A DNA stretch of 64,000 nucleotides from contig JAFGEW010000027.1 in NCBI GenBank assembly GCA_016931415.1, positions 4,550 through 68,549 of the forward strand, read 5' to 3'. The notes under the pieces were generated by a model. The model searched no databases. It saw nothing but the letters and a program-made list of their open reading frames with translations, and was not told the DNA's origin. The stretch comes from Verrucomicrobiota bacterium (lineage in GTDB: Bacteria; Auribacterota; JABMQX01; JAFGEW01). The translations under genes were made by a program, and so were the position numbers. Below, piece by piece: positions 6-18,765 of the stretch (the stretch's first letter is position 1; each line of letters opens with the position of its first letter).

Positions 6-599
6 ATGATGATGCTTGCCTCCGGCGCACGTGCGCGCCACGCGCTGCGCGTCAAGAACGACTCCGAGGTGCCGCTCACCACCGGCCCGGCCCTCATCCT
101 CGCCGAGGGAAGTCGGACGGGTGGCCAACTGCTTGCCCAGAGCTTGATCCGCTACACATCGGTCGGCAACGAGGTCGATGTTGACGTCACGGTCGCCACC
201 GATCTCCACACCAAGAAGTGGGAGCAGCAGACCGGCCGAGAGGACAACGCCAAGGTCATCAACGGCCACAACTTCACGCGCCTCAACATGCGCGGTTTCC
301 TCGAACTGACCAACTACAAGAAGGAACCGGTCACCGTCGAGGTCACGCGCGCCGTGCTCGGTACCCTCACCGAGTCCGACAACGACGGCGAGCTCTTGCA
401 GATCAACGCCTTCGAGGACTGGTCCTACCTGCCCGAGGGCTCCGGGGCGAACTGGCGTTCCTGGTATTGCCGTTGGTGGGGCAACTGGCCGTCGTGGTGG
501 CACAACGCCAACGACATCGGCCAGGTCAAGTGGACCATCACTCTCAACCCGGGCGAGAAGCGCACGCTCGGATACACGTGGTACTACTACGCGTGGTGA
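6..599 (+). CDS. Hypothetical Trp-rich protein (C-terminal WWGNWPSWWH / YTWYYYAW). AGGAG sits at window positions 1-5, so the gene may start at one of the first ATGs or continue upstream of the window.
   Basis: Long ORF with GC3-rich codons and no recognisable family motif. Converges on the small membrane protein gene on the minus strand. Confidence 0.4.
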   Translation: MMMLASGARARHALRVKNDSEVPLTTGPALILAEGSRTGGQLLAQSLIRYTSVGNEVDVDVTVATDLHTKKWEQQTGREDNAKVINGHNFTRLNMRGFLELTNYKKEPVTVEVTRAVLGTLTESDNDGELLQINAFEDWSYLPEGSGANWRSWYCRWWGNWPSWWHNANDIGQVKWTITLNPGEKRTLGYTWYYYAW

Positions 600-996
600 G
601 CGATTCACGCCACGGCGTAAGGTACAGGAATGCCGTGTCGCCGTCTTTGATCTCGGGAACTTGGAACTGCGGGTACGCGAGGCCCTGCTCAATAATGTCG
701 AAGATCCCCTCGTTTCTCGCGACGGTGTCGGCGGCAAGCGCATCATCCCAGCCGTCGCCGACAAGAAGGCCTTCGAGACGTTTGTTGTCGTTGTAGTGCG
801 TGGGCCAGTCAAGGGCAGCCACCGCGTCGGCGAAGAAGGTGAAGGCGTTCTCCGAGTCGGGAATCCGTTCGGAGGTGGGGCGCAGGTCGGCATCGTCGGG
901 CGCGAGGGCGTCGACCAAAGCCCAGATGCTGAACAGGGCGAACAGGGACAGAACAATGATGGAGGCAATGATGATCCGCTTCCGGCCCAACGTCAT
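544..996 (-). CDS. Small membrane-anchored hypothetical protein (N-terminal TM helix IIIASIIVLSLFALFSIWALV).
   Basis: Start chosen at M46 (MTLGRKR...) of ORF 544..1131. It has one hydrophobic helix and no motif. It lies downstream of, and co-oriented with, hybrid kinase 1. Confidence 0.35.
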   Translation of the reverse strand: MTLGRKRIIIASIIVLSLFALFSIWALVDALAPDDADLRPTSERIPDSENAFTFFADAVAALDWPTHYNDNKRLEGLLVGDGWDDALAADTVARNEGIFDIIEQGLAYPQFQVPEIKDGDTAFLYLTPWRESLTTRSSTTCIRACASRPG

Positions 997-1127
997 AATC
1001 GAGTCTCCCAGCTCCGTCACGCTCGCCGCCGTGATGCGAGCAGCCGCATGCCGTTTGCCGCGGCGCACAGGTGCCTGCACTGAGACTAGCAGGGAACGGC
1101 TACCTGGCCAGGTCGCGAGGAGCGGAA

Positions 1128-4100
1128 TCATGCACCGGCGGGAGGCCTCCTGGACTCGAAATGGGCCTGAATGGCGCGGAGCCGCTCAATAAGCGGGCCG
1201 ATGGAGTCGAGATCGCCGGCCTTGCCAAGCTCCTCGATCCGGGCGCCGATCTCGCTGATCTCGGGGAAGCCGTACGAGGCGCCGCTGCCCTTGAGCCGGT
1301 GGCCGAGCCCGCCGAGTCCGGCCGCGTCGTCCTGCACCGCGAGCGCGTCGAACTCGGCCAGCACGCCGGCAAAGGCGTCCATGTATTCGCCGCGCAATTC
1401 CTCGAGGAGCCCGCTGAACTGCTCATCGGCCTCGACCTGGGTGGCCGGTGCCGACGTCGACGGCGCGAGGCGCGGAGCGGGCTGCGCCGCAGGCGTTGCG
1501 ACCACCTTGCCGACGCCGCCGGCATGCGCCGGCACATGGCGGTGCGCAAGCACACGCCTCATCTCGCCAAAGAGCTCCATCTTCTCGATGGGCTTGGAGG
1601 CGAAACCGTCGCACCCGGCGGCCATAGCTTGATCGCGGTCGACTTCCATTGCCGAGGCCGTCAGCGCCACGATCGGCAGATCGGCCAAGTCCGGATCGGT
1701 CTTGATCGCGCTGGTGGCCTCATGACCGCTCATCACGGGCATGTGCATGTCCATCAGAATGATGTCGGGGCGCCGGCGCGCCTGCTCGACGGCCTGGCGG
1801 CCGTCTTCGGCGATGAGTACGGTGCAGCCGTGGTTCTCCAGCAGCCGGGTGATAAGACGGCGGTTGAACACGTCGTCCTCGGCCACCAACACGCGCAAGC
1901 CCTCACATTGCAGGTCCGGCCGGGTGTGGGACGCGTCCTGCCCGGTCTGCACCTCGCTTTGAACCGGCGCCCACGGGAAGGTCAGCGTGAAGGTCGAGCC
2001 GACGCCCGGCGTGCTCTCGACGCTGATCGTGCCGCCGATCAGCTCGGCGAAACGCCTGCACAATGTCAGGCCAAGCCCGGTGCCGCCGAAACGGCGCGTT
2101 GTGCTCGCATCGGCCTGAGTGAACGGCTGGAAGACCGCGTCGAGCTTGTCGGCGGCGATGCCGATGCCGGTGTCAATCACGGCCAGCTCGATAAGCGCCG
2201 CGCGGCACCGCACGCGAACAGTGATCGAGCCCTGCTCGGTGAACTTCGCGGCGTTCGACAGCAGGTTGGTCAGGATCTGGCGGACTTTGACTTGGTCGGC
2301 GCGGATGGCGTCCGGCACATCGGGAGCGATGTCGGTAACAAGCACGATCCCGTTCTTGGAGCAGCGGGCGCGCACCAGGTCCGTGCTGTTGGCAACAAGC
2401 CCGTGGAGGGAGAAGTCCACCTCCTCGATCGTCATGCGCCCAGCCTCGACTTTGGACAGGTCGAGAATATCGTTGATGAGCGCCAACAGGTTGGTGCCGC
2501 TCGTGTTGATCATGCTGACGGTCTCGCGTTGCTCGGGCGTGAGCGCCTCTTCGAGCAGCAGCGTCGAGAACCCGATAATGGCGTTCATCGGCGTGCGGAT
2601 CTCGTGGCTCATATTGGCCAGGAAACGGCTCTTGGCCTCGTTGGCCGCTTCCGCCGAACGTTTGGCCTGCTCGAGCGCCTCGGCCTGCTTTCGCTCGGTA
2701 ACGTCCTGGAGCACCGTGGCAAACTGGCCGGGCGCCGGAGCGAACACCGAGGCCATGCAGTGCTTGCCCAGCGGCTCGATGTACTGCTCGACAAACACGG
2801 AGCGCTGGGTGGCTATCATCTGGTGGTACAGATCGAGGAACGGGGGCGCTCCCGAGCTGAACAGCTCGGAGCCGCGCTTGCCGAGCACTTGGGCACGCGT
2901 CACGCCGGCGAGCGTCTCGAAGGCCGGGTTGATGTCGAGCACGACGTAGTCGACGGCGCTGCCATCATCACCGCTGACGACCTCGTGCAGGGCGACGCCC
3001 TCGGTCATGGCGGCAAACATGCCGCGGAACCGCTCCTCGCTCCGCCGCAGGGCCTCCTCGGCCCGGAGCCGCTCGGTGATGTCGCGCGAGAGGGCGAGGA
3101 GAATCTCGCGCTCGCCCCATCCAACCTTGGAGACGCGCGTCTCGACGGGGATAAGGGTGCCGTCCTTCGCCATGAGCGGCACGGGGCAGGTCTGGCGCGT
3201 GCCGGCAAGCATATCGGTAATGATGACGGCGCTTTCGGCCCGGCGTTCAGGCGGGTGGACATCGAGCACGTCCATGCCCTGGAGTTCGCGGGCCGAGTAG
3301 CCGAGGCGCTTTTCGACAACCGGGTTGACCTGCACGATGCGCGCGCTCGCATCGAGAATGAACAGGAAGTCCTCCATGCCGTTGAACAGCGTCTGGAGTT
3401 TGTCGTGGCTCTCGCGCACGGCGGTCTCGGCATGCCGGATCTCGTCCGTGCGGCGCTCCACCTCGGCGATCATGGCGTTGATGCTTCGCTGCAACTGCCC
3501 CAGCTCATCGGCCCACGTCTTGGACGAGAGTCGCGCTCCGAGGTCGCCTGCCTCGACGCGCCGCAGGCAGCGCACGGTCTGGCCGATGCGCCAGCCCGTC
3601 AGCGTGTGCACCAGAAACACCCCGGCCAGCGTCGTGAGCACCACACAGACGACCGAGCTCAACGCAAAGGACACGGCGGTCGCCCGCTTCTCGGCCGCCG
3701 AGCGGCTCGTGTTCACCTCGAGGTAAAGGTAGCCGATGAGCTTGTCGCCCGAATGCAGCGGCGTGAGCGTCGAGACGTAGGTCTTGCCGTCGCGCCGGAA
3801 CCACCGCGTCTGGCCTGTCGCGGCGTCGGTCTTCCAGTCCGTTTCGGCTCCGAGCACGGCGCTTGCGTACCGGCCTTCGAGGGCCGGGTCTGAGGCATAG
3901 AACAGCCTGCCGTCGGGCCGCACGACGAAGGCCTGCTCAACGTTCTCGCCAACGAGACGTTCGAGCGCCGCCCGGTCGCGCACCGCGTCGTAGTTGAGCG
4001 CCTGCTCCGCCATGAGCGTGCCTGGGATCTGCATCTTGGTGCGGACCTGGGTGTCGAGTTCGCGGCTGTAGTGGCCGACGTAGTGGAAGCCCAGCAGAAC

Positions 4101-4172
4101 AAAGACCAACGTCTCCATCATGAAGATGGCGAAGCTGATCTTGAATGCAAGGCTATGAACGAACCGCCGCAT
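1128..4172 (-). CDS. Hybrid sensor histidine kinase with domain order TM, HAMP, 2x PAS, HisKA, HATPase_c, REC, Hpt.
   Basis: H-box [18 protein letters not shown]; G-box [13 protein letters not shown]; receiver domain [12 protein letters not shown]...[14 protein letters not shown]...VALTASAM; C-terminal Hpt [12 protein letters not shown]. Start chosen at M22 (MRRFVHS) ahead of the TM segment. Confidence 0.85.
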
Positions 4173-4242
4173 CGCGATCACTCCGACGCCCCCGCACACG
4201 CCGATCCGACCGCCGGCGGCCGGATCGGCCCGCACGGACGGT

Positions 4243-5649
4243 CTACTTGCACTCGGCCATCACCGCGTCGTAGGCCTGCTGGGCTGTCGTTTCGCCAGCG
4301 AGCAAGCGGACGACCTGCTCGTTGACCACATGCCCGAGCAGCTTGTTTTCCTCGCCGAGAATAAAGCCAACGTCATCGCTGAAATACAGCCGGCCCCCAT
4401 AGGTCGTGTTGACCCGAGCCTGAAACTGCTCGAACTGGTCTGTGCCCGCGGTCGAGGTTTCCAGGTTGCCGCGCAGCCCCGTGGGTGCCTTGGTGTAGCG
4501 CACCCACTTCTCGGCCACCTTCGGCTGGCACCAGAACTGAAGCAGCCGCACGGCCGCGTCGCGGTTGGGCGCGTTCTTGAACACGGCAAACTGCGGCGTG
4601 TAGCTGCCCATGTAGAAGTCGGTCGGCGCCAACACGGGCAGTTCGGCCGGCACCATCTTCATCGTCTTGGTCTCGTTGAGGTTCATCCAATGGCTATACA
4701 TCCACGAGCCATTGACATAGAAAAGCGCCTGGCCATCGAGCACCAGCCCGCGCGTGTCGAACCACACGTTGTCGTTGTACGAGCCGATCAGCGGCTGGTA
4801 CCGGCCGATCTCCTCGAGGGCCTGGAGCGTCTTGAGCAACGAGGCCCGCTTGCCCTCCGAAGCGGTCTTCTGCCTCAGCTCGTCGTAGTCGCCCACGGCT
4901 GAGGCGAACAGGTGGCGGAACAGGTACTCGGTCGTGCGCCAGTCTTTGGCCTCGTAGAGTGCGGCGATTGAAGTCCCGTGCGTCGCGTTGTAGTCGTGTA
5001 CGGCGCGCACGTAGCCGACGAGGTCCTCCAACGTCATGCCATGCTGCTTGATCTTCAGGCCGAGATCTCTGGCCACCTCGCTGTTGAACCACAGCATGCA
5101 GTAGAACCCCTCGATGTACGGCCCGACGTAGGTCCCGCCGAAGGCCTCGCGGTACATCGGATCCTCGCTGATGCACGGCTTCTGTGTGGCCAGGAAGCCG
5201 TCGATCTCCCCGAAATCCACCAGGTACTTCTGGCCCCACAACGGGTCGTCAAGCAGCGCGGCCACGTCGCGGTACTGCCCGGTGTTGACCGGCACAATGT
5301 CCCACTCATAGTTGCCGCTCCGAATCATCTCGACGATCTTGGCGGCGACGCACTTCTCGTTGGGCAGTCCGGCTTCCTGATGGAACGCAAAATTGAGGAC
5401 CAAGTCCGGGTTGAGAAAACCGAACTCTTGCGCGAGCTCACGGACGAACGTTTCGCGCTTGTGCTCGCCCATCCACCGGGCCATCCAATTCAGAGACGCC
5501 GTCGTGGGCATCGTCGGACCGCTCGGGCCCGTCCCGTCAAGCACCGGCGTGCCCGCCGGGCCCGTTGTCCGCTGCGACGGCCAGAGCAGGAAGAGCGCCA
5601 GGCCGGCGACCAACACAGTGGTGCCCACGGCAATCCAGGTACGATTCAT
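4243..5649 (-). CDS. Extracellular solute-binding protein (ABC-type family 1, sugar-binding-like) with an N-terminal signal anchor.
   Basis: N-terminal TM/signal [23 protein letters not shown]. About 450 aa with the alpha/beta periplasmic-binding-protein flavour. Encoded between the two hybrid kinases. No cognate ABC permease or ATPase genes are adjacent. Confidence 0.65.
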
Positions 5650-5652
5650 CGT

Positions 5653-7890
5653 CTAACCCTCCTTGGGAGCGGCCACAGGGACCCGCGCCCGGTTGTATGC
5701 GGTATGGATCTCGCGGAGCCGCTCGACCAGCGGCGCGATCGGATCGAGCTTCGCCTGCCTGCCGAGCTGCTCGATCTGGGCGCCCAACTCGCTGATCTCG
5801 GGGAACCCGTACGAGGCGCCGTTGCCCTTGAGCCGGTGGCCAAGTCCGCCGACCGCGGCGGGATCCTGTTGGGCGATGAGCGCGTCGAGCTCGGCGAGCA
5901 CACCGGCAAACGCCGCCATGTACTCGCTACGCAGCTCCGCCATAAGCGAGTCGAAACCCGCCTCCACGGCCGCGCCCGATGCCGCCTGGCTGTCGGACGA
6001 CGCCCGCGGCACGGCCGTCGTGCCGCGCACCCCGAGCACACGCTGCATCTCGGAAAACAACTCGTCGGTCTTGACGGGCTTGGCGACGAAACCGTCGCAG
6101 CCGACGGCAAGCGCCTTCTTGCGGTCGCTTGCCATGGCCGAGGCCGTGAGCGCGATGATGGGGATCGCGGCCGTCCTGTCATCGGTTTTCAGGGCACGCG
6201 TCGCGTCGTGCCCGCTCATGACCGGCATGTGCATGTCCATGAGCACGAGGTCGGGCCGATCGGCAACCAGCGCGACGGCCTCGGCGCCCGTGGCGGCAAA
6301 GGCGGGGATACAGCCATGATTCTCAAGCAGGCGACGTATGAAGCGGCGATTGAACTCATCGTCCTCGGCCACGAGCACGCGTAGCCCGTCGAAGGTCAGC
6401 GACGCCGACGGGGATACCGGCTGCGCGGACAAGCCGGTGCCCGGCCTGAACGGGAACGACATGGTGAACGTCGACCCTTCACCCGGTGTGCTCTCGAGGC
6501 GGATCGTGCCGCCCAACAGCGCCATGTAGCGCCTGCACAGCGTCAGCCCGAGCCCGGTTCCGCCAAACCGGCGCGTTGTCCCCTCGTCGGCCTGCGTGAA
6601 GGGCTGGAAGATGTGTTCGATCTTGTCGGCCTGGATGCCGATGCCGCTGTCCCTGACGTCAACCTTGATGGCGTTGCCCTGCCGCGAGGCGTGCACGAGG
6701 ATCGAGCCGCTCTCGGTGAACTTCACCGCGTTCGACAACAGGTTGTTCAGCGTCTGTCGCACCTTCACCTCGTCGGAGCGAACCGTCGCCGGCAGGCTCT
6801 CTCCGAGTTTGACGCTGAGCGCGATCCCCTTGGCCGAGGCCCGATTGCGGAACAGGCTCACGCAGTTACGCACGAGCGCGCTCAGGTCGAAATCGACTTC
6901 CTCGATGGTCATGCTGCCGGCTTCCACCTTGGACAAGTCGAGGATGTCGTTGAGAAGCACGAGCAGATTGCTGCCGCTCGTGTGGATGATCTCGACCGTC
7001 TCGTGTTGCTCGGGCGTCAGTTCCTCCTCGAGCAGCAAGGTCGAAAAGCCGATGATGGCGTTCATCGGCGTGCGGATCTCATGGCTCATGTTGGCCAGGA
7101 ACTGGCTCTTGGCCTCGGAGGCGGCGCGCGCCTCGCGCGTTTTGGTCTCGAGGTCGCGTGTGCGGTCATGGACCAATTCCTCGAGGTGGGCGCGATGCTG
7201 CTCAAGCTCGGCATCGCGTTTCTGGATCTGCGCCACCATCGAGTTGAATCCCTCGTGGAGCACGCCGAGCTCATCACGGCTCGTGCTCGCCACTCGGATC
7301 GAGTAGTCCCCGTCGATCGAGATGTGCTGCGTGGCCTTGGCAAGCCGCATGATCGGGTCCGCGATGAGGCGCTGGAGCGCTAATCCGAGCAGGACGGAGG
7401 CGCCCAGCGAGCTGCTCACCACGGCGGCCATGATGTACAGCGCCTGCATAATGCGCGCGCGCACCTCGCCCAAGTGGGCGCGCAAGAACACGGTGCCGAC
7501 CTGCTCGCCCTCGAGCACGATTGGGCTGAACACCTCGAGGTGCTTGTTGCGGAACCAGGCGCCACTCTCCCCCACCGGCGGCACGGGGCCCGGCGTGCGC
7601 CCGGCATGGTACGTGGCAAACGGCGCGCCAAGACCGTCATAGACGCACGCATCGACCACAACCGCCTCGTGGCGGAGCGAGGCAAGGGTCTCGTTCGCCG
7701 CACGCGCATCATCGAAGGCAAGTGCCGCCGCCGTGTTGTCGCCGAGCACGCCGGCCAGTGTCGAGAGTGTGCGCACCATCGAGGCGCGCGTCACACGCAC
7801 CTCGTTCACCATAGACGTGGCCCCGGAGAGAAATACCGACACGGCGGCAATCAGCGCCAGGAGCAGCACCAGCTTCGTCTTGATCGACAT
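5653..7890 (-). CDS. Hybrid sensor histidine kinase with domain order periplasmic sensor domain, HAMP, HisKA, HATPase_c, REC, Hpt.
   Basis: H-box [24 protein letters not shown] and Hpt segments are closely paralogous to kinase 1 ([19 protein letters not shown]). Start chosen at M58 ([16 protein letters not shown]). Confidence 0.85.
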
Positions 7891-7909
7891 GGCACTGAAG
7901 CCGCGCACG

Positions 7910-8497
7910 TCAGTCCTCCTTGGTGGCCTTGACAAGGCGCGCCAGCCGCAGCAGCTTCGAGCTGATCTTGAGCCCCGCGCGCTCGGCAGCCGCCGGGTTG
8001 ACTTCGAGCCGCACCTTGTTGTCTTCGATGACCAGACCGAGCGCTCCGCCCGCCTGGGCAAACCCTTTGGTGTCGGCCACGAGCAACACCGGCGTGTCTC
8101 GTAGTCTCTCGATCACGCCGGCGATGCGGCTGTGCTCGGAGACTGCGACAAACAAGATGTGGCACGGCGTGTAGGCCTCGAGGGTCTCGAAACGGCGCAC
8201 GATGATCCGCTTGTCGCCGACCTTCTTGGTCGCTGCAATCTCGTCGAGGAAGGTCCCGAAAGGATCGGAGCCGAGCACGCCGATCACGAACACGTCGGGC
8301 GTCTCGGGTACGGCGGTTGCCGGCCATTCGACGAACAGGGCGGCCTTATACAGAAACGCTGCCTTGATCTGGTACTCGCGGGCCACCAGCTCGGACGCGC
8401 CGGCGCGCCCCGCCATGGCAAACACAGCCGCCAACGCGATCAGGCCGGCGACTGCGGCGGTTGGACACAGCATCAAGGCCGTTCTGCGCAGCATCAC
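7910..8497 (-). CDS. DUF4154 / YfiR-like periplasmic protein.
   Basis: Signal peptide followed by conserved [18 protein letters not shown] ... CHILFV ... LLVADT ... ISSKLLRLA, typical of YfiR-family proteins linked to TonB-dependent receptors and sensor kinases. Confidence 0.7.
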
Positions 8498-8501
8498 CGT
8501 C

Positions 8502-9182
8502 TCAGCTCCCTGCCCAGAGGGCCTGCCGCCAACGGCTCGACGGGCCCCTGGCCGATGCCAGCTTGGTCAGCGCGAGGATCATCCCGCGCCCCCCGGCCTC
8601 GCCCTGGACAAGGCGGGCCAGCCGAAGGAGTTTCGAGCTGATTCTGAGCCCGGCCCGCTCGGCGGCTGCCTGGTTGATCTCGAACCGGACCTTCCTCTCC
8701 TCGAGTACGAGGTTGACCATGCCTCCCGCCTCGGCGAACCCCCCGGTGTCGCCCACGATGAGCACAGCGGCACCGGCAAGCCGCTTGAGCACAACCGGCA
8801 GATGCTCGCGCTCCGACGCGGCGACGAACAGGATGTGGCACGGCGTGTAGCCGTCGAGCGTGGCGAACCGCCGCACGACGATCCGCTTGCCCCGGACGGT
8901 CCTGGACGCGGCGATCGAGTCAAGCTCTGGCCCGAAGGGGTCTTTGCCGAGCACGCCGATGATGAACGTGTCGCCCGCGTCGGGCACGGCGTCCTCGGGC
9001 CAGTCGACGAACGTGGCGAAGTTGTACAGAAAGGCCGCCTTGACCTCGTACTCGCGCGCGGCGCTCTCGCCTTCGCTGGCGAGGACCGGGATCGTGGCGC
9101 ACAGCCACAGCAGCACCACGGCGATGACCGCCGCGGCACTGCGCGTCGGGTCTCGAAGGCCTCTGTCCTTCGTCACGTTCAT
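8502..9182 (-). CDS. DUF4154 / YfiR-like periplasmic protein, a tandem paralog of the preceding gene.
   Basis: Same motif set ([43 protein letters not shown]), giving clear paralogy with 7910..8497. Confidence 0.7.
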   Translation of the reverse strand: MNVTKDRGLRDPTRSAAAVIAVVLLWLCATIPVLASEGESAAREYEVKAAFLYNFATFVDWPEDAVPDAGDTFIIGVLGKDPFGPELDSIAASRTVRGKRIVVRRFATLDGYTPCHILFVAASEREHLPVVLKRLAGAAVLIVGDTGGFAEAGGMVNLVLEERKVRFEINQAAAERAGLRISSKLLRLARLVQGEAGGRGMILALTKLASARGPSSRWRQALWAGS

Positions 9183-9201
9183 GTCAGACGGTCCCCGAGT
9201 G

Positions 9202-11211
9202 TCAGAAGCGGTAAACCAGCTTCAGGCGAAAGCTGCGCCCATCCTGGTCAATGATGTCCTGGATGTGCTCCTCCGACCCTGGATGCCCATAGCGCGTGTC
9301 GAACACGTTGTAGATGCTTGCCGAGAGGCTCAGCCCGTCGGCGAGGTGCGCCGCCACCAGGGTGAGGTTAGCCACGACGAAATCGTCGGCCTCGTTGCCC
9401 CCCAGCGTCAGCCGCGTACCCGTGTAGCGGACTTCGAGGCCGGTGGAAAGCCGTTGGCCGGCGAGAGGCGCCCGTAGCTTGAACTTCGCCAGGTGTCTGG
9501 GCGAGTTGGTCAGCCGCGCGCCGGTTTCACTGTTGGTCGTCTCTTGATAACTGTAACTCGCCGTGGCGCGCGCGCCGGAGCGCCAAGCGCGTTCGAGCTC
9601 GAACTCGACACCATGCGACTCGGCCTGATCGATGTTCATGAAGAAGAGCAGCCCGTCGTCGGGGTCCTCGACCTGGTTGATCAGATCGTCGAGTTCGTAG
9701 CGGAACCCGGCCACCGTGAGCCGCAGCGCCTTGCTGAGCACCTGTTCGAGAACGACCTCGTAGGTCGTGATTGTCTCCGGCCCCAGCTCGGCGTTCCGTC
9801 GTTGGGTGATGGCGTAGTCCTCGTAGTACAGCTCGTAGACGCTCGGGGCACGAAACGCCTCGCCATAGAGAAACTTGAGCGTCGTGCGAGCGCCCGCCGC
9901 ATAGATGAGGGCCAAGCGTGGATTGGTGCTGCCGCCGAAGGTCTCGAAATGGTCGTGGCGCACGCCGGCGTTGACGATGAGCGCGTCGGCGAGCATCCAC
10001 TCGTCCTGCGCATAGACGCCCCAGTTGACGCTGCTCCGCTGGTCGTCAAGATAGACCACTTCATCGAAGTTGAGCTGATCCTGGCGGTAGTTGTTCTGGA
10101 CCTCCGCGCCGACGGTGAGCCGGTGGCGCGCCGAGACCGGCTTGCTGAGCTGAGCCTCGCCGCCGTACCAGCGGCCCCAGACGAAGTCCGTGTTGACCAG
10201 GATGCGCGAAAGATCCCCCGCCTCCGAAGCGTCCCAGGGGTACTCGCCAGCGTAGTTGTACCAGCCGTATGAGAGCCGGGCGAGCGCCTCGAGCTCGCTG
10301 GGATAGGCGTGCATCCATGTCAGGTCGAGGCGGCCCTGCGCGTCAACCGTGAAGGTTCCATGCGCATCGAACAGCGTCTCCCAGGGCGCGGTCGGGATCA
10401 TCTTCTCCCGCCGGGCGTAAGCCGCCTGGAGCGAAAAGTCGCCGTACGAGATCAACCCGAATAACTGGTTGGAGGCATCGTCGTCGTCGGTGGTGCTGCC
10501 GTTGTTGGTCTCAGGCGAGTCGAATTCCTCGAAGAACAACCTCGGGCCCGCGCTGTCGTAGAGCGTGCCCGAGAGCAGCACCTCGAGGCCGTTCTCACGC
10601 CGCGTCGCGTAGGTGAACCGCCCCTTGAGCGTATCGTAGCTGGCCACCTCAGCGCTCGCCTCGGCCCCTTGCAGATCGCGCCCGTGCCTGGTGATAACAT
10701 TGACAACGGCGAACAACGCACCCGTGCCATAGAGCGACGATGAGGGCCCGCGCACGATCTCGACCCGGTCGATCAGATCGACGTCGATAATGGCTGCCGT
10801 GCCGAGGTAGGCTGCGCTGTAGATGTTCTCGTTGATACGGCTGCCGTTGACGAGCAGCAACACACGTGTGTTGTAGTCGCCGGGCCGCAAGAAGCCCCGC
10901 ACGCCCAAGTAGCTGTAGTTGCGATCGTAGGTGACGTAGAAGCCGCGCACCCCGTCGAGCAGCTCGCCCAGCGTCCGGTAGCCGTAGGCGCGGATGTCGC
11001 CGGCCGTCACGATTGTCACCGACGACGGTGCCTGGCGCACCTCCTGCTCGTGGCGCGAGGCGGTCACCACCACGTCAACGTCCATGAGCTCTTCGAGGCT
11101 CAGGTCAGTGAAGTCGGCGCCCTCGGCGTCGCTGTCCGCCGCCTGGGCGGAAGGAGCCGCCGTTGCAGCGATGACGCCGGCGAACAGCACACAGAGGACT
11201 TCGCGTCTCAT
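9202..11211 (-). CDS. TonB-dependent outer-membrane receptor.
   Basis: Signal peptide, then plug domain (DVVVTASR...SVTIVTAGDI...RVEIVRGPSSSLYGTGALFAVVN). The beta-barrel ends in an aromatic residue (LVYRF). Confidence 0.85.
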   Translation of the reverse strand: MRREVLCVLFAGVIAATAAPSAQAADSDAEGADFTDLSLEELMDVDVVVTASRHEQEVRQAPSSVTIVTAGDIRAYGYRTLGELLDGVRGFYVTYDRNYSYLGVRGFLRPGDYNTRVLLLVNGSRINENIYSAAYLGTAAIIDVDLIDRVEIVRGPSSSLYGTGALFAVVNVITRHGRDLQGAEASAEVASYDTLKGRFTYATRRENGLEVLLSGTLYDSAGPRLFFEEFDSPETNNGSTTDDDDASNQLFGLISYGDFSLQAAYARREKMIPTAPWETLFDAHGTFTVDAQGRLDLTWMHAYPSELEALARLSYGWYNYAGEYPWDASEAGDLSRILVNTDFVWGRWYGGEAQLSKPVSARHRLTVGAEVQNNYRQDQLNFDEVVYLDDQRSSVNWGVYAQDEWMLADALIVNAGVRHDHFETFGGSTNPRLALIYAAGARTTLKFLYGEAFRAPSVYELYYEDYAITQRRNAELGPETITTYEVVLEQVLSKALRLTVAGFRYELDDLINQVEDPDDGLLFFMNIDQAESHGVEFELERAWRSGARATASYSYQETTNSETGARLTNSPRHLAKFKLRAPLAGQRLSTGLEVRYTGTRLTLGGNEADDFVVANLTLVAAHLADGLSLSASIYNVFDTRYGHPGSEEHIQDIIDQDGRSFRLKLVYRF

Positions 11212-11698
11212 TGCCGTCTCCTGTCCCTATTCGGTATCTCCAGGTAATCGGGCATTTGTCGCAACCCGCGGCTGGGCCGACGCGCCGGTCAACTCCCCAC
11301 GGATGCGGTGAAGACGCACGGCAGGCATAGGGACAAGCCCGGCGGGGATATGCTCTGTGCAGCCCAGCGCGCTCGGGGGTGTTCCCGAGCTGGGCCGGTA
11401 ACAGTCGGCAGCGTGCGGAGTCCTCACTGTTGTTGCGGCAGCACGATCCGCTGCGACCATGTGTGTCTCTCTCCCTGCGGCGCGCCCCCGGGGCGGGCCG
11501 GCAGCTCTCTCTGGTGCGCGGGTGGGCGCGCCCCCCGGGGGAGAGGGCGCGCGCAGTCCGGTCGTGGTATCGGCACACTGGGGAGTCGCTTGAGCTGAAA
11601 CCCGACCCTCCGAGTCGGTTCCGAGTGCCGAACGGAAGGGTTGCCCGGATCGGACCTGACCTGTATCATCCGCGGGCACTGTCTTGGGAGGAAAGCGA

Positions 11699-12772
11699 AT
11701 GCCGTCTCAATCGGACCACGGCGAGACCGCCGCCGGCCACCTGCAGCCTCAGGAACCACTCTCCCAGATCCCCGTCCTCCACATCCGTGCCCGCACGCTG
11801 CCCGAGGCGTGGGAACGCGCCGTCGCCGAGACCTGGCGAACGGGCGCCGCCATATGCACCCAGTACGACAAGCCCGGCGACCCGCCTAGCCGTGACGCCA
11901 CCGTCGTGATCGAGATCGCCGAGCCGCTCGGCGAGCCGCGCCTGCACCGTAGCTTCCCCGCCGGGCTCGAGGAGCTGGAGATCTACGTGCAGGAGGTCGT
12001 CTGGGGCGTGCACGACTCGTGGATTCGTCCGGACCAAGGCAAGTGGTCCTACACCTACCACCAGCGCCTGTTCGCCTACGACGTGATCGCCGATTTCCGG
12101 GACTCGCCCACGGGCGGCCCGTTCGGCGCCGTTGACCAAGTAGCTGCCGTGGTCGACGAGCTCGCCGCGTGCGGCTACACGCGCCGTGCCCAAGCGATTA
12201 CCTGGATGCCGACCGTTGACCTCGGCCACGCCGAGCCGCCGTGCCTCCAGCGCGTCTGGTGCCGGCTGATCGATGCTGCCCCCGCGCACCGCACTGACGA
12301 GGCCCCGCGCCTGGTGATGAACACACACTGGCGCTCGCGGGACGGCTACAAAGCGGCCTTCATGAACATGGTAGCGCTCACCACGCTCCAGGCCGAGATC
12401 GCCCGCCGGCTCGCCGAGCGCCTTGGCCGGCCCGTCGAACTCGGCCGCTACGTCGACATCTCCGACAGCTTCCACATCTACGGGAGCTACTTCGGCGAGA
12501 TCGAACGCAGCTTCCTCGCCCTCATGGCGCAGCGCTCGTTCGACGAGCGCACCTGGCGCACCGACGATGTGGCCGACCTGCTCCTCATGGGGCGCGTGCA
12601 GCTTCTCAACGGCAAACCTGGTGAACCGCCCGTCTCCGACAACGACGCGGCGCGTCTGTACTCAAGCCTTCCCCCATCGCACCGATGCTTAGTGGAGGAA
12701 TCGGTGCGCACCCGCATCGAGCGCGCACAGGCCGGCCCCCGCGCCGCAGGCGCAGGCGACGCCGGACTGTGA
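11699..12772 (+). CDS. Thymidylate synthase / dCMP-hydroxymethylase superfamily enzyme; divergent, with a 60-aa N-terminal extension.
   Basis: Active-site Cys (PPCLQRVWCRL) aligns with ThyA PPCHAFFQFYV. WRSRD aligns with QRSCD, FMNMVAL with FNIASYAL and DISDSFHIYGSY with GDTHLYSNH. ATG at 11699 sits 7 nt after GGGAGG. Confidence 0.65.
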   Translation: MPSQSDHGETAAGHLQPQEPLSQIPVLHIRARTLPEAWERAVAETWRTGAAICTQYDKPGDPPSRDATVVIEIAEPLGEPRLHRSFPAGLEELEIYVQEVVWGVHDSWIRPDQGKWSYTYHQRLFAYDVIADFRDSPTGGPFGAVDQVAAVVDELAACGYTRRAQAITWMPTVDLGHAEPPCLQRVWCRLIDAAPAHRTDEAPRLVMNTHWRSRDGYKAAFMNMVALTTLQAEIARRLAERLGRPVELGRYVDISDSFHIYGSYFGEIERSFLALMAQRSFDERTWRTDDVADLLLMGRVQLLNGKPGEPPVSDNDAARLYSSLPPSHRCLVEESVRTRIERAQAGPRAAGAGDAGL

Positions 12773-12866
12773 CCGGAGTGCTCTGCGACAGCTAGACGGA
12801 TTGGACAACACGAGACACCAGCACCATGCCGGCTCAGACGAAGCGTCGGCGAGCCCGAGCGTATCC

Positions 12867-14039
12867 ATGGCAACACGAGCCCAGGTTCTCATCATCGACG
12901 CCGACGTGACCACGCTGGAGGCGCTCCGCGTCGGCTTGGCGAAAAACGGCTTCACCGTCGAGGCCCATGCCGACGCCCATGAGGCCTACCGGGCGCTGGC
13001 GGCCCGGCCGTTCGACGTCGTCATCGCCAGCCTCGGCGTGCCCCAGGCCGAGGGCCGCAAACTGCTCGAACGCGTCAAGCAGGGCGACCCGACCGTGCCG
13101 GTCATTTTCCTGGCCAACGGCTCGGCCTGCTCGTCCGCGGTCGAGGCGCTGCGACAAGGCGCCTTCGATATCGTCGAGGGGCCCATCCGCGTACCCAAGG
13201 TCCGATCGCTTGTCGAGCGCGCCATCGAGGTGCGCCGCTTGCGCGAGGAAGTGGCCCGCCTGCGTGCAGAAATGCTCGCCGGCACCTGCCCCGACGAGCT
13301 CATCGGCCAAAGCCCCCCCCTCGTCGCCGTCCTCGAGGCGATCCGGCGTGCAGCGGCCGACACAGGCTGCGTGTTGCTCTGCGGCGCGCCGGGCACCGGC
13401 AAAGAGCTGGCGGCCCGCACCATTCACCGGCTCAGCACCCGGGCAAGCAAACCGTTTGTTGCCGTCGACTGCGCCGCCCTCAACGAGGCCTTCGTCGAGA
13501 GCGAGCTTTTCGGCCACGTGCGAGGCGCCTTCCCCGGCGCCTTCGCCGACCACGCCAGCCTGATCGAGACCGCGGATGGCGGCACGTTGTTCCTCAACTC
13601 GATCGACGTGCTGTCGAAAGCGGCCCAAGTACGCCTGCTCAAGGTCATCGACGAGCGCGTGATCCGTCCGCTCGGCTCGACCGCGTCGCGCCCCGTCGAG
13701 GCCCGGCTCGTGGCCGGCACCGCAACCGATCCTGCAACCGCCGCCGGCCGCCGCCGAGTCCGGGAGGATCTTCTTGCCCGCCTGAGCACGGTGCGCATCG
13801 CCCTTCCCGAGCTCAAGGAGCGGTCCGAGGACATCCCGCTACTCGCCAATTTCTTCGCCAAGACCATGGGCGCACGCCTCGGCACCCCGCCGCCTGCAAT
13901 CTCGCCCAAGGCGATGGCAATCCTCATGGATCGGCCCTGGCCAGGCAACGTCCGACAACTGCGCGACGTGGTTGAGCGCGCCGCCCTTCTGACCGACAGC
14001 GCTCAGATCTGCCCAGAACACCTCGGCGAGCCAACCTAG
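12867..14039 (+). CDS. Sigma-54-dependent response regulator (REC + AAA+ sigma-54 interaction domain). It ends at TAG before any DNA-binding domain.
   Basis: REC domain (VLIIDADV...DVVIASLGVP); Walker A GAPGTGKE; ESELFGHVRGAFPGA; GNVRQLRDVVERA. See the finding on the in-frame extension 14040..14279. Confidence 0.8.
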   Translation: MATRAQVLIIDADVTTLEALRVGLAKNGFTVEAHADAHEAYRALAARPFDVVIASLGVPQAEGRKLLERVKQGDPTVPVIFLANGSACSSAVEALRQGAFDIVEGPIRVPKVRSLVERAIEVRRLREEVARLRAEMLAGTCPDELIGQSPPLVAVLEAIRRAAADTGCVLLCGAPGTGKELAARTIHRLSTRASKPFVAVDCAALNEAFVESELFGHVRGAFPGAFADHASLIETADGGTLFLNSIDVLSKAAQVRLLKVIDERVIRPLGSTASRPVEARLVAGTATDPATAAGRRRVREDLLARLSTVRIALPELKERSEDIPLLANFFAKTMGARLGTPPPAISPKAMAILMDRPWPGNVRQLRDVVERAALLTDSAQICPEHLGEPT

Positions 14040-14648
14040 CCGGCCGGCACATTCAGGCGCGGCCTGGAAGGCGCGACGTTCATCGGCTCGTTCGAGTCCC
14101 TCGACGTCACCACACCATACGAGGGCGTCCGCGATGTCATCGTGCGCGCCAGCGCCCTCTGCCACGGCATGTCGCGCTCGATCCTGGCCACGCCGGGCGT
14201 CGAGCTCGAGTTTTCCGAGGGTCTTCGACCACATGAACTTCGTGAACTGCTGGAGCCCCCTCAACGACTCGCTCGATGAAGGGGAAAGAGGATCCCGGCC
14301 TCGACGGCCTGACAAGTATCGGCGACTTGGGCGAGGGCGACGGCCCGGGAGAGAGAGCCGGCCATGGCTCACAGGGCAAGCCACGACCTCGACGACCTGA
14401 TCGGCGCCCTTGTCATCGGCGGAGTCAGCCTCGTCGGCTTCCTCCTGCTCCGCGGCCGCGATTGGACGTGACGTCGTCGCCCGAGCGCACGCCCACGCCC
14501 TGTCGCGCGGCGCGGCCACTCGGGTTGGCTTTGACCCCGCGCGGCGAGCAAGATACACTCCTGCCGGCCGACTCATGTGAACAGAGCGACCGTCCAGGCG
14601 TCCTAACGTTCAGCGCATCTCGGACCCTGAGCAGGACAACTCGCTATC

Positions 14649-15653
14649 ATGCCGACGATCACCGCCCACATCTCACGCCCCTGGTTGCCCTGGTTCATCT
14701 GTCTCGTGGCCATCAGCACGACCGGCGCGGCCTCCGAGACGCAACAGCCCGCCGAGACCGTCCCGGCCCGACTGCTGGCCTGGGTACTCGAGCCAGGCGA
14801 GGCACGCGGCCACACCGTCGAGATCGAGCTCGACACACGGTTGGCCATCACGCAAGGCAGCGAGGCCATGCGGCGCCACACGGCCATCGTTGCCTCGTTT
14901 CAGATCGAATCGCTCGGCCTGCGCCGCCGCCAGATCGACGAATACGTCGTCGAGGACTGCGTCCATGATTTTCAGCTCGCCGTCCTTACCACGGCCGACG
15001 ACACGACCACCGAGGTGACCATGGATCGGACAGGCCTCACGGCGCGGCAAGGGCGTGGACAGCCCCACACCGCGCCGTGGGCCGATGTGCCGCGCGGTCA
15101 CGGCGGGGAGATCGGCGAGTTGCTCGGCCGCGGGATGACCAACACGATCAACCGCTGTGGCACGGCGCTGGCTGTCGACGCCCGCATGAAGCCATGGGAG
15201 CGTGTGCTTGACTGTATGGACCTGACACCCTTGCTGCTGCCGCTGGTTCCGCTGCCAGACAGCGCCGTCGAACTGGGCACAACATGGACGGTGACCGGCC
15301 GGCGCCAGGTGCAGCTCTCGTGGCCCTGGGGCTCGATCGAGCTCGAAACCCGCACCGAGGTCAAGGTCCGCGCCTTCGAGCGCCAGGGCGACCGCGACGT
15401 GGTGCGCCTCAGCTTCATGGCCGTCACCAAGCCGGCCGAGGAGCAGGTGCGCCTCAGATACGCCCTGACGCTACGCGGCGAGGTTGTGCTCGGGCTCGAC
15501 GGCACCGTCGTCGGCGGCGAGGCGGACATAACGCTCGCCGCCTCGACCACGGTCATCGATGCCGTGCACGAGCTGGCTGGCGCGGGCACACTCCGCTTTC
15601 GCGGCGCGCCCGGAGCGCCGATCCCGCCCCAGAACGAGCGCAACAGCGATTAG
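14649..15653 (+). CDS. Hypothetical secreted protein.
   Basis: Signal peptide (WLPWFICLVAISTTGAAS). 334-aa ORF with no recognised motif. Confidence 0.45.
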   Translation: MPTITAHISRPWLPWFICLVAISTTGAASETQQPAETVPARLLAWVLEPGEARGHTVEIELDTRLAITQGSEAMRRHTAIVASFQIESLGLRRRQIDEYVVEDCVHDFQLAVLTTADDTTTEVTMDRTGLTARQGRGQPHTAPWADVPRGHGGEIGELLGRGMTNTINRCGTALAVDARMKPWERVLDCMDLTPLLLPLVPLPDSAVELGTTWTVTGRRQVQLSWPWGSIELETRTEVKVRAFERQGDRDVVRLSFMAVTKPAEEQVRLRYALTLRGEVVLGLDGTVVGGEADITLAASTTVIDAVHELAGAGTLRFRGAPGAPIPPQNERNSD

Positions 15654-15669
15654 ACGGCGCGCGCCGTCC

Positions 15670-16227
15670 TCACTCGGCCGTGATGGCGGTCGGCGAGGTC
15701 CACACCGTCCCAATCCAGGCCGGCGTGCCCCCGCCGGGGAGCGGCTCGTCCTTGACCGTGTAGAAGAACACCACGCGGTACTCCCCTGGCTGGGAGAAGC
15801 TGTAATACGGCGCGATACGCACCACCTCGTTCGCGCTGGTGAAGTCGCCGAGTTGAGGCGCATACAGCTCGCCCTGGACGTCCTTCGGCGCAAGCGCGAC
15901 CGAGGTGATCTGACCATCGGGGGCCTTGATGGCCGCGCTGAGAAATGTGTACACGATGCCGTCGGGCGTCTCGATGCCGAGCGGCAGCGCGCGCGGCGTT
16001 TTCGATGCATTGTACAGGAGCACATTGAACTCCACGTCGCCGCCGGTTTGGATGGTCGTCCAGGCCGGGCGGGCCTGGAGCTTCACCGAGCGGTCCTTGG
16101 GCGGGCGGAACTCCTCGCCGAAAAACTGCTCAAGGTCGGTTCTCTCGTCCAGCGGCTTGTCCTTGCGCCCGCAACCGCACAAGACGGCCACCACGGCAAT
16201 CACACAGATCATCGTTCGCCAGATCAT
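15670..16227 (-). CDS. Hypothetical lipoprotein.
   Basis: Lipobox-like N-terminus (VIAVVAVLCGCG). Start overlaps the archaemetzincin stop by 4 nt, which suggests translational coupling. Confidence 0.5.
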   Translation of the reverse strand: MIWRTMICVIAVVAVLCGCGRKDKPLDERTDLEQFFGEEFRPPKDRSVKLQARPAWTTIQTGGDVEFNVLLYNASKTPRALPLGIETPDGIVYTFLSAAIKAPDGQITSVALAPKDVQGELYAPQLGDFTSANEVVRIAPYYSFSQPGEYRVVFFYTVKDEPLPGGGTPAWIGTVWTSPTAITAE

Positions 16228-17195
16228 GGTTCCTCCACACCTCTTGTTGTGGCTGCACGCACGCCCGGAGCGCCGGCAAGACGCTCGCGCACGAGGCGCG
16301 CATCCAATGTGAATCCAAGTTGGTCGTATAGAGCCGCCAGCCGTTCGAACCGCACCGTCGGATCAAAGGCAAGCGCATGACGCAGTTTATCATGACACAG
16401 CGGGCAGTAGTGTAACGGCTGGCCGTCGCTTTCACCGAGCGAATTGCTCCCGTTCATACAGCAGGCGTAGAAGATGCAGTGCCGCAGACCGAAGACGTGG
16501 CCGGTCTCGTGCGCGAAACTCTTGACCGCCCGGTGCAGGAACTCGGGCGTGTCCGGCTCCCCGTTGCGCCCCAGCGCAATGATCGCGACCCGCCTGCGCA
16601 AGCTGGCCAGACCGAATACGAAGTCGAGCTCGCCGCTGTAAAGGTCGGCCATGGTCACCCCAACCACGGCGAGCGCATCGTCGGGCGCGACGCGCGCCAG
16701 CCGGGTGAGCACGTCGGCCGCATTGTACTGCTTGCGCCGGTGGATGTAGGACGCCTCGGGCAGTCGAACGGGCCGGAGCACGGTGACGCGGCAATCGAAG
16801 AACACCCGCGCAAACGCGGCGAGCTGTGTCACCACCCGCTGCGTCGCCGCGTCCATCGGCCCGCACGGCAGAATGTAAATCGTCTGGCGCTGATCGGACT
16901 TGAGGTTGCCCGCCGTCCGGACGAACTCCTCGTACGTCTGCCCGGGCTCGACCACAATCGAACGCCACTCGCCCGGCTTCGGCTCGCCGAGCTTACGCCA
17001 TTCGCTCTGAGCATACTCGGCATAGACAAGCGCTGTGCGCTGCTCGGCCGTCAGCGGCGCGCTCGGACGCGCCGCCTGCCCGGCCGCACGCAGGAAGCCC
17101 CACCCGATCGCGATGCACGCGATCAGTCCCACCAGCCTGAGCAACAAGCCCGGCCGGACGGCTCGGTGGAACGTCGTGAGACGCTCAGACATGGA
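16224..17195 (-). CDS. amzA: Archaemetzincin-like zinc metallopeptidase.
   Basis: HETGHVFGLRHCIFYACCMNGSNSLGESDGQPLHYCPLCHDKL matches the archaemetzincin HExxHxxGxxHCxxxxCxM...CxxC signature. N-terminal TM anchor present. Confidence 0.7.
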   Translation of the reverse strand, partial: SMSERLTTFHRAVRPGLLLRLVGLIACIAIGWGFLRAAGQAARPSAPLTAEQRTALVYAEYAQSEWRKLGEPKPGEWRSIVVEPGQTYEEFVRTAGNLKSDQRQTIYILPCGPMDAATQRVVTQLAAFARVFFDCRVTVLRPVRLPEASYIHRRKQYNAADVLTRLARVAPDDALAVVGVTMADLYSGELDFVFGLASLRRRVAIIALGRNGEPDTPEFLHRAVKSFAHETGHVFGLRHCIFYACCMNGSNSLGESDGQPLHYCPLCHDKLRHALAFDPTVRFERLAALYDQLGFTLDARLVRERLAGAPGVRAATTRGVEEP

Positions 17196-17337
17196 CATTG
17201 TCCTTGACTGCGTCTGGGGCACCAAATAGGTTGGGGCCGCGTTGCCATCTCTGAACGGATGATGCTATCATATATATATGATGCGTGTCCCGCCAACGCA
17301 AGTTGGGGGTGCGCATCGTGCTGCAAAGGAGATCGCC

Positions 17338-17562
17338 ATGGAGACAAAGATCCGCGAAGTGATCGAAAACCAGATTCGGCCCCTGCTGCAACGCGACGGA
17401 GGGGATATTGAATTCGTCGGCATGGACGACAAGACGGTGAAGGTCCGCCTCCGGGGGGCGTGCGCCGGGTGCCCCGCCTCGCAGATGACACTGCAGTTCG
17501 GCGTCGAACGCCTGCTGCGCGAGGAAGTGCCGGAGATCGAACGCGTGGTCGCGGTCGCCTGA
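17338..17562 (+). CDS. NifU-like (Nfu-type) Fe-S cluster scaffold domain protein.
   Basis: IREVIENQIRPLLQRDGGDIEFVGMDDKTVKVRLRGACAGCPASQMTL carries the Nfu C-terminal domain with its CxxC motif. Confidence 0.7.
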   Translation: METKIREVIENQIRPLLQRDGGDIEFVGMDDKTVKVRLRGACAGCPASQMTLQFGVERLLREEVPEIERVVAVA

Positions 17563-17590
17563 GCGGCCGCGTAGAGGGAGGGAGTCGGCG

Positions 17591-18205: not shown

Positions 18206-18221
18206 CGCAACGAGTCTTGTA

Positions 18222-18270
18222 CGCGGCACCCTGCCGTCATCGGGTGATGATGACACGGTGCCGCGTTTTT
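18222..18270 (+). terminator. Rho-independent terminator downstream of the membrane protein gene.
   Basis: cgcggcacc ... ggtgccgcg stem with an inner ccgtcatc/gatgacacgg pairing, followed by TTTTT. Confidence 0.6.
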
Positions 18271-18749: not shown

Positions 18750-18765
18750 AAACGTGTTGACACGT
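18750..18765 (+). promoter_or_regulatory. Palindromic operator AACGTGT-TG-ACACGTT overlapping a TTGACA -35-like hexamer.
   Basis: Perfect 7-2-7 inverted repeat seen directly. It lies about 135 nt upstream of the mini-ORF. Confidence 0.4.

Follow-up and report, generated by a model that had tools for sequence, protein, structure and literature searches.

YfiBNR (TpbB) and HmsCDE, known from Pseudomonas, Escherichia coli and Yersinia and acting through cyclic di-GMP (c-di-GMP), are the only studied relatives of the gene set described here. YfiR binds to a periplasmic domain of the cyclase YfiN that was described as PAS and is now classed as CHASE8; YfiB, a lipoprotein of the outer membrane, titrates YfiR away (PMC4655355, PMC8085984). 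A gene set built from comparable parts lies on contig JAFGEW010000027.1 of assembly GCA_016931415.1, of which positions 4,550 to 68,549 were analysed; this stretch of 64,000 nucleotides is called the window below, and all coordinates refer to it. Its source is labelled Verrucomicrobiota, not Planctomycetota as an earlier preliminary description had assumed. In the window, a candidate sensory operon of six minus-strand genes diverges from a plus-strand pair, namely a gene for a thymidylate synthase-like (ThyA-like) protein and, behind it, a gene for a protein resembling sigma-54 enhancer-binding proteins (EBPs). Our leaning, if only a slight one, is towards reading the operon as a mosaic of two shuffled modules whose output regulator is encoded elsewhere, with the ThyA-like protein as a housekeeping enzyme and the EBP-like protein as a degenerate family member that is not the output.

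The operon starts with a TonB-dependent receptor (TBDR) gene (9202-11211, minus strand), the product of which has 669 amino acids (aa), a signal peptide, a Plug domain and a 22-strand barrel. Two genes for YfiR-like proteins with signal peptides follow on the same strand: YfiR-like a (8502-9182; 226 aa; DUF4154 E 9.8e-49) and YfiR-like b (7910-8497; 194-195 aa; DUF4154 E 1.7e-43). The next gene encodes the hybrid sensor kinase HK1 (5653-7908, minus strand), which has a periplasmic CHASE8 domain between two transmembrane segments, followed by HAMP, HisKA, HATPase, REC (receiver) and Hpt domains. It is succeeded by a solute-binding protein (SBP) gene (4243-5649, minus strand; 468 aa) with SBP_bac_8 and SBP_bac_1 matches, whose product is periplasmic and carries an N-terminal membrane anchor. 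The last of the six, the hybrid sensor kinase HK2 (1128-4172, minus strand), comprises a small periplasmic loop between two transmembrane segments, then HAMP, two PAS domains, HisKA, HATPase, REC and Hpt. Domains were searched with Pfam, and family-level scores were taken from NCBIfam and TIGRFAM models against their curated cutoffs. The six co-directional genes of the preliminary description are thus real, and all the domains that it listed were recovered in the order given there.

The open reading frame (ORF) of HK1 spans 5653-8061, and its likely start is GTG 7908, which is preceded by an AAGGAGG Shine-Dalgarno sequence and lies 1 nt from the stop codon of YfiR-like b. Counted from this start, the periplasmic CHASE8 domain covers about residues 35-145. 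For HK2 (ORF 1128-4235), ATG 4172 is the likely start and is backed by the onset of the orthologue alignments. The locus is high-GC coding DNA, and the called frames have a GC content at third codon positions (GC3) of 0.84-0.89. Because the junctions between the minus-strand genes measure only 1-70 nt and show Shine-Dalgarno sequences and stop/start juxtapositions, the six genes fit a single operon transcript. A seventh co-directional gene, whose ATG overlaps the HK2 stop, is found at 544-1131 (minus strand). It encodes a membrane-anchored product and has no Pfam match; its GC3 reaches 0.8-0.87 in the central part only. The product shares 34% identity with a membrane-anchored protein of 301 aa whose gene immediately follows HK1 in a homologous locus (L090, 12957-13859; L-numbers designate homologue loci used for gene-context comparison). 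It diverges after about 175 residues and, judged by this alignment, looks like a truncated remnant.

The first module consists of the receptor, the YfiR-like proteins and the CHASE8 kinase. In all sampled contexts of YfiR-like homologues (49-76% identity; L082/83, L084/85, L086/87, L088/89, L090, L092, L096/97 and L099, the last with TBDR1 and YfiR_a at the contig end), a TBDR gene lies directly upstream and a CHASE8 sensor gene directly downstream of the YfiR-like gene. This TBDR-YfiR-like-CHASE8 triad is a widespread and conserved gene order that is already curated in NCBIfam (NF053590-92), and the layout, earlier called unusually elaborate, is not especially unusual. Both YfiR-like proteins pass NF053591 (YfiR_like_TOL0243) with 170.3 (a) and 158.2 bits (b) against a cutoff of 125, and YfiR-like a is identical to the NCBI entry "YfiR family protein" (P0121). 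The TOL_ names of the triad families go back to Thalassolituus, a culturable carrier of the triad. CHASE8 is recognised in HK1 with an E value of 1.8e-18, together with HAMP. The N-terminus of the kinase covers positions 1-222 of the 223-position model NF053592 ("sensor histidine kinase, YfiR-like protein-associated") and scores 190.0 bits, where the cutoff is 194. HK1 is 75-79% identical to HK1 of L096/L097 and, over its full length, 56% identical to the kinase of L090. The receptor shares 73% identity with the TBDR encoded ahead of the L099 orthologue of YfiR_a, and 47-57% with the triad receptors of L084-L089.

The window thus shares with the NCBIfam triad the order of receptor, YfiR-like protein and CHASE8-HAMP kinase. 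It differs in having two YfiR-like genes per receptor and in an operon that also holds the SBP-kinase pair. Furthermore, HK1 carries fused REC and Hpt domains and has no stand-alone receiver next to it, whereas L086 and L088 have a separate REC gene of 122-125 aa behind the kinase gene. Outputs vary throughout the sampled triads and include hybrid kinases, kinases with a stand-alone REC protein, GAF-only proteins and long PAS arrays. L086 (5733-16603) contains two complete TBDR-DUF4154-CHASE8 triads in tandem. In the first, a stand-alone receiver comes after a hybrid kinase; the second has a PAS-rich protein of more than 1900 aa.

The three-tier architecture of YfiBNR and HmsCDE is also recognisable here, with a DUF4154 protein, a CHASE8-HAMP inner-membrane sensor and an outer-membrane partner. 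However, the output part in the window is HisKA-HATPase-REC-Hpt instead of a GGDEF cyclase, and the outer-membrane partner is a TBDR instead of an OmpA/Pal-like lipoprotein; no OmpA/Pal-like domain was found by Pfam in the eight cluster genes scanned. A second point of comparison is the FecA-FecR-FecI type, in which a TonB-dependent transducer with an N-terminal signalling domain works with an anti-sigma/ECF sigma pair. Here, too, a TBDR is genetically coupled to an inner-membrane signalling protein. Unlike FecA, the TBDR of the window lacks the N-terminal signalling (STN) domain, as its Pfam matches are confined to Plug, which begins at residue 58, and the barrel (TonB_dep_Rec_b-barrel). Where the FecA type has the anti-sigma/ECF pair, the window has a soluble periplasmic protein and a two-component kinase, and the cluster genes scanned with Pfam yielded no sigma-factor or anti-sigma domain.

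By analogy with YfiBNR, the YfiR-like protein would bind the periplasmic CHASE8 domain of HK1 and thereby set the activity of this kinase. Because of the YfiBNR/HmsCDE precedent, the TBDR may be placed in the YfiB position, where it would titrate or load the YfiR-like protein upon a ligand-induced or TonB-driven change; the protein-protein contacts and the ligands are what we infer in this scheme. The triad may accordingly represent a distinct and widespread trans-envelope route in which a soluble YfiR-like protein shuttles the signal from a TBDR to a two-component kinase and in which one kinase can serve several receptor/YfiR-like pairs, as HK1 would for TBDR1-YfiR_a and TBDR2-YfiR_b in this lineage. 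This proposal is tentative, and we would not give it even odds. A somewhat more doubtful possibility is that the YfiR-like proteins are ligand-binding co-sensors and not sequestered repressors: the TBDR would import a substrate, the YfiR-like protein would bind it in the periplasm like a binding protein, and the liganded form would switch the CHASE8 kinase to act on uptake or catabolism genes. The only studied family members, YfiR and HmsC, are repressors that are titrated away, and the window has two YfiR-like genes but a single receptor, both of which speak against co-sensing.

The two YfiR-like proteins are 58% identical (BLASTP). A neighbour-joining tree places a and b in two sister subclades, with separate orthologues from other samples in each, and on this topology they are old paralogues. 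A recent tandem duplication was rejected, as the distance between a and b equals their distance to orthologues and the orthologue sets are separate. In a relative pieced together from the L099 and L097/L096 contigs, which stem from the same or similar samples, the gene order is TBDR1, YfiR_a, TBDR2, YfiR_b, HK1, the YfiR_b orthologue being located between TBDR2 and HK1 in L097. Identity to the window amounts to 73% for TBDR1, 76% for YfiR_a, 76% for YfiR_b and 75-79% for HK1, and TBDR2 of the relative is only about 30% identical to the window receptor. Since the relative carries both pairs, the window has kept both YfiR-like inputs and lost the second receptor, TBDR2. The paralogues would then be left over from two TBDR-YfiR pairs that both give input to HK1. 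The converse case is seen in L082, with two receptors and one YfiR-like gene.

The second module is the SBP-HK2 pair, which is kept in L001, L002, L081 and L094 with 68% (SBP) and 58% (HK2) identity. LuxP-LuxQ and TorT-TorS are binding-protein-dependent hybrid kinases, and the window resembles them in that the gene of the hybrid kinase, which has a short loop in the periplasm, is immediately preceded by the SBP gene. According to NCBIfam, the core of this kinase shows similarity to TorS, LuxQ, BarA and ArcB. In contrast to these systems, the SBP is of the sugar-type SBP_bac_1/8 group and membrane-anchored, and no cognate regulator is encoded nearby. On the strength of adjacency and co-conservation, the SBP is presumed to be a co-sensor of HK2; it would present its ligand to the small periplasmic loop of the kinase, much as in LuxP/LuxQ or TorT/TorS.

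Both kinases have an intact H-box, REC Asp and Hpt HxxKG motif, and their REC domains are canonical. As both end in REC-Hpt, a downstream receiver is needed, as had been stated before. Because the transmitter-REC-Hpt cores of HK1 and HK2 are 60% identical over 517 aa, and the sequences around the Hpt phospho-His are nearly identical, the two kinases probably feed one common regulator. Each would run a His-Asp-His relay, and we infer that the two relays converge on a single response regulator encoded elsewhere in the genome.

The same parts recur in other arrangements among close relatives. The operon of L081/L090 reads K-channel-TrkA-REC-Hpt, dCache_3-GAF, SBP, HK2, TBDR, YfiR-like, HK1. L002 and L094 show the front part of this order (K-channel-TrkA-REC-Hpt, dCache_3-GAF, SBP, HK2); in L002 the start of a TBDR gene follows HK2, and the L094 contig is cut inside HK2. 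In L082 the order is TBDR, TBDR, YfiR-like, CHASE8-HAMP-GAF, SBP_bac_11, PAS protein, and in L092 it is dCache_3-GAF, TBDR, YfiR-like, CHASE8-PAS kinase. Because module order differs among the relatives, the apparent single elaborate operon of the window is, as far as gene order tells, one permutation among several of the same parts, the modules having been shuffled between close relatives. What was said earlier of a multi-input envelope sensing cluster holds in this form, with an outer-membrane receptor, YfiR-like proteins and a CHASE8 kinase next to a binding-protein/PAS-kinase pair.

The gene that heads the sensory operon in some relatives encodes an unusual fusion of 577-584 aa, in which a K+ channel pore (Ion_trans_2), TrkA_N/TrkA_C, a receiver and Hpt are joined (L002, 8096-9829; L081, 8074-9828; L094, 6319-8052; all minus strand). 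Its neighbour is a dCache_3-GAF-GAF protein without a kinase domain.

The plus-strand gene for the EBP-like protein (12867-14039; REC, Sigma54_activat and AAA_lid_14) had been proposed as the target of both Hpt domains, with sigma-54-dependent transcription, possibly of the ThyA-like gene, as the result. Its ORF spans 12801-14039, and ATG 12867 is the likely start. In favour of this proposal, a phmmer search of 49 candidate ORFs across the 64 kb with REC, Hpt, kinase and AAA seeds found REC only in HK1, HK2 and the EBP-like protein. The claim that the adjacent gene is the sole non-kinase REC gene of the window therefore stood; that its product serves as the receiver is highly unlikely, as the protein is degenerate. 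Alignment to Aquifex aeolicus NtrC1 (1NY5) and four canonical EBPs showed that, in the receiver, the phospho-acceptor Asp is replaced by Ser, the conserved Thr by Ala and the conserved Lys by Gly. Walker B reads LFLNSI instead of LFLDEI (DE to NS), the sensor I Asn is an Ala (GTAT instead of ATN), and the L1 loop is GAFPGA, not GAFTGA. Walker A is kept (GAPGTGK, matching GxxGxGK). The GAFTGA motif and the Walker B Glu are central to the function of bacterial EBPs (PMC7175178).

The DNA-binding domain is missing as well, since Pfam found no HTH_8 (PF02954) in the EBP-like protein or in any of its 10 orthologue clusters. The end of the gene at 14279 in the preliminary description resulted from reading through the TAG codon at 14037-14039, and the actual end is 14039. 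The 79 residues past this codon have no Pfam match, so the extended C-terminus adds no domain. A helix-turn-helix (HTH) hidden beyond the TAG codon or in another frame was ruled out by three-frame translation and a Pfam scan, which likewise gave none. Judged by these motif states, the EBP-like protein almost certainly cannot receive phosphate, hydrolyse ATP, contact sigma-54 or bind DNA. Because all four abilities appear to be lost, it is read as an NtrC-type descendant that is neither a phospho-acceptor nor a sigma-54 activator and that at most acts without phosphorylation.

The losses are shared by a small group. The orthologues fall into 10 clusters with 57-100% identity, after which identity drops to 43% or less and the matches are ordinary EBPs with HTH_8. 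None of the orthologues has the Walker B Glu, the sensor I Asn, the GAFTGA Thr or HTH_8; the Thr is replaced by Pro or Ala in all 10 full-length orthologues, and the Walker A Lys is Arg in two. At the phospho-site, the eleven orthologues have S, S, S, D, G, D, E, G, E, D, A. The L082 orthologue consists of a 142-aa pseudo-receiver only. Within the atypical NtrC family, single losses of the sigma-54 loop or the DNA-binding domain have precedent: NtrX and Rhodobacter capsulatus NtrC lack GAFTGA, and FlgR and CtcC lack the DNA-binding domain. The EBP-like protein, by contrast, combines the loss of the phospho-acceptor, the Walker B Glu, the sensor I Asn, the GAFTGA Thr and the HTH, and we know of no functional EBP without ATP hydrolysis, sigma-54 loop and DNA-binding domain together. 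FleT is an EBP without a DNA-binding domain, and bacterial EBPs without the D domain exist (PMC7175178). NCBI names the EBP-like protein (P0241) "sigma-54-dependent Fis family transcriptional regulator", and the JGI orthologues are called AtoC or NtrC-family response regulators. As the protein has no Fis-type HTH and no catalytic or sigma-54-contact motifs, the name of P0241 is probably a propagated misannotation.

The divergent intergenic region of 487 nt (11212-11698) was searched for the -24/-12 element of sigma-54 promoters, as had been suggested. With up to 2 mismatches, TGGCAC-N5-TTGC has no match there on either strand. Instead, a sigma-70-like promoter (TTGCCC-17-TATCAT) occurs at 11641-11669 on the plus strand, about 30 nt upstream of the ThyA-like ATG, where 0.0 would be expected and 1 was found. 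A riboswitch or other RNA was also considered for this region and dropped: Rfam gave no match at the gathering threshold or with E up to 1, and only short GC-rich palindromes are present. The sole exact TGGCAC-N5-TTGC of the window (0.12 expected in 64 kb) is located at 47462-47476 on the plus strand, about 90 nt upstream of groES-groEL (Cpn10, Cpn60; 47568-47864 and 47892-49583, plus strand). It may be a sigma-54-dependent chaperonin promoter and suggests that sigma-54 is functional in this organism.

A probably working sigma-54 and the proximity of the ThyA-like/EBP-like pair to the sensory operon in four layout variants are thus compatible with the proposed circuit. Nevertheless, with the receiver, Walker B, sensor I, GAFTGA and HTH all defective and a sigma-70-like promoter in place of a -24/-12 element, phosphorylation of the EBP-like protein by the Hpt domains and ensuing sigma-54-dependent transcription are highly improbable. 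The lost motifs, the absence of a -24/-12 element between 11212 and 11698 and the lack of another REC ORF in the 64 kb imply that the output of the relays is encoded elsewhere.

The ThyA-like gene (11699-12772, plus strand; ORF 11684-12772, likely start ATG 11699) scores below the cutoffs of its models, with 21.2 bits for Pfam Thymidylat_synt (cutoff 24.3) and 111.7 bits for TIGR03283 (cutoff 174.55). A profile of its family matched only ThyA structures in the PDB (E 1e-4). Compared with methanogen-type ThyA (TIGR03283) and the ThyA superfamily, the catalytic Cys, the Arg residues binding the dUMP phosphate, RSxD, the uracil-selecting Asn and HxY are kept, but the protein is about 100 residues longer. 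Invariant in the family are Cys182 (PPC), RR162-163, R212-S-x-D215, N223 and H259-x-Y261. More than 5000 homologues were found, and the at least 573 species loci span Aminicenantes, Phycisphaerae, Sedimentisphaerales, Pirellulales and Acidobacteriota, among others. Among the best 80 species loci, neighbours in common with the window occur at the two closest only. Beyond the narrow clade, neither the sensory operon nor an orthologous EBP-like gene adjoins the ThyA-like gene at any locus. A role as a dedicated sensor partner across phyla was therefore rejected.

The ThyA-like protein is most likely a housekeeping dTMP synthase that is related to the methanogen type and, as its sequence and upstream region indicate, expressed from a sigma-70-type promoter. 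Its family occurs in more than 570 species outside this gene context, which makes it an unlikely candidate for the dedicated, regulated "nucleotide-modifying" target proposed before. In four distant loci, an unrelated full-length EBP gene is found about 2 kb from the ThyA-like gene with other genes between them, and these proximities were judged coincidental. Two distant metagenome-assembled genomes (L026, 6872-8233; L037, about 6500-8000) have a gene for a full-length EBP about 2 kb upstream of the ThyA-like gene, with two genes between, an arrangement likewise judged coincidental. The L1 loop of this EBP is GAFPQA, its phospho-Asp and Walker B DE are kept, and its C-terminal region is longer.

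In the narrow clade, the two halves of the locus are conserved together: the sensory operon and the ThyA-like/EBP-like pair are adjacent and divergent in four layout variants. Halves that are never conserved together, which had been named as a refuting result, are therefore not what the loci show. A possible explanation of the adjacency is synteny inherited within a family-level clade. At 14649-21817, right of the EBP-like gene, the gene order is conserved with L094 and L082 and includes an unknown 334-aa protein, a 185-aa protein, Peptidase_M54, NifU, CopD, P-II, an ABC ATPase and an MFS transporter. Because of this conserved order, some of the adjacency is possibly plain synteny.

The alternative is that the EBP-like protein is a phosphorylation-independent part of the sensory island that ties envelope sensing to the ThyA-like operon. 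Its pseudo-receiver might dock on the kinases or their Hpt domains as a decoy or connector, or an ATP-binding, non-hydrolysing AAA+ ring might hetero-oligomerise with a true EBP or poison it. Persistence of the pair beside the sensory operon in L092, even with other synteny lost, would fit such a role, as would the pseudo-receiver being the best-kept part and surviving alone in L082. Most of Walker A is preserved, as are many AAA+ columns across orthologues of 57-77% identity, which argues for purifying selection and not for a pseudogene. Precedents are FleT, which has no DNA-binding domain (PMC7175178), and the hetero-oligomeric HrpR/HrpS (PMC3105312). On the other hand, the orthologue group is tiny with its 10 clusters, and the exchange of the Walker A Lys, the loss of the sensor II Arg in several orthologues and the free variation at the phospho-site look more like decay than like a new constraint. 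Adjacency inherited within one family-level clade could also account for the pairing. A phosphorylation-independent adaptor that links the island to dTMP synthesis is therefore unlikely and is kept as a smaller additional possibility.

Several observations weigh against the mosaic reading with a degenerate EBP-like protein and an output encoded elsewhere. The phospho-acceptor Asp is kept in 3/11 orthologues of the EBP-like protein, so that the role of cognate receiver may have belonged to their ancestor. In L092, the pair stays beside the sensory operon although the other flank and the downstream synteny differ, which hints at a functional tie that the mosaic reading leaves unexplained. No output regulator was found within the 64-kb window, which is part of an 88,337-bp contig of a metagenome-assembled genome. 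The assignment to the triad also has weak points. The receptor, with 132.7 bits, is far below the cutoff of 645 for NF053590 (TOL_0244 receptor family), and it is only 25-34% identical to the triad receptors of the closest relatives. On the true-YfiR model NF053586, whose cutoff is 85, the two YfiR-like proteins reach just 34.7 and 32.1 bits (32 for YfiR-like a). One Cys per mature YfiR-like protein was counted in the translations, which were not aligned to YfiR, and the disulfide pairs of YfiR appear to be absent from both. A literature search returned papers on YfiBNR only and no study of the TBDR-YfiR-like-CHASE8 triad; as no experiment or publication on the triad was found, the YfiBNR-like logic assigned to it is an analogy.

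Other genes of the window lie apart from the sensory operon. At 23244-24863 (plus strand), a protein of 539 aa is encoded in which a GNAT acetyltransferase and a cyclic-nucleotide-binding domain are fused. A DacZ-type diadenylate cyclase (DAC with a DacZ_P sensor domain; 46057-47241, minus strand) is accompanied by a co-directional gene for a 999-aa DUF3857/transglutaminase-like protein (43061-46060, minus strand).

The claimed circuit from an envelope sensor via sigma-54 to a nucleotide enzyme fails, and the locus is not the unusual circuit that it seemed to be. What is new is a variant of a catalogued triad that is joined to a binding-protein/kinase pair and has a decayed gene of the NtrC family as its neighbour. 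The neighbour is one of a small NtrC-family clade in which all catalytic and output features are gone and which is nevertheless conserved, and it points to a probable, transferable annotation error in public databases. The ThyA-like gene adds context for a large, uncharacterised family of methanogen-type-related thymidylate synthases in several bacterial phyla. The triad itself proves to be modular, with receptor/YfiR-like pairs that are duplicated, lost and re-ordered around one kinase, and natural variation of this kind could inform initial experimental work on a triad that is common but unstudied. If the proposed trans-envelope route is true, it would be a third TonB-linked signalling logic beside the anti-sigma/ECF and the SusC/HTCS systems.

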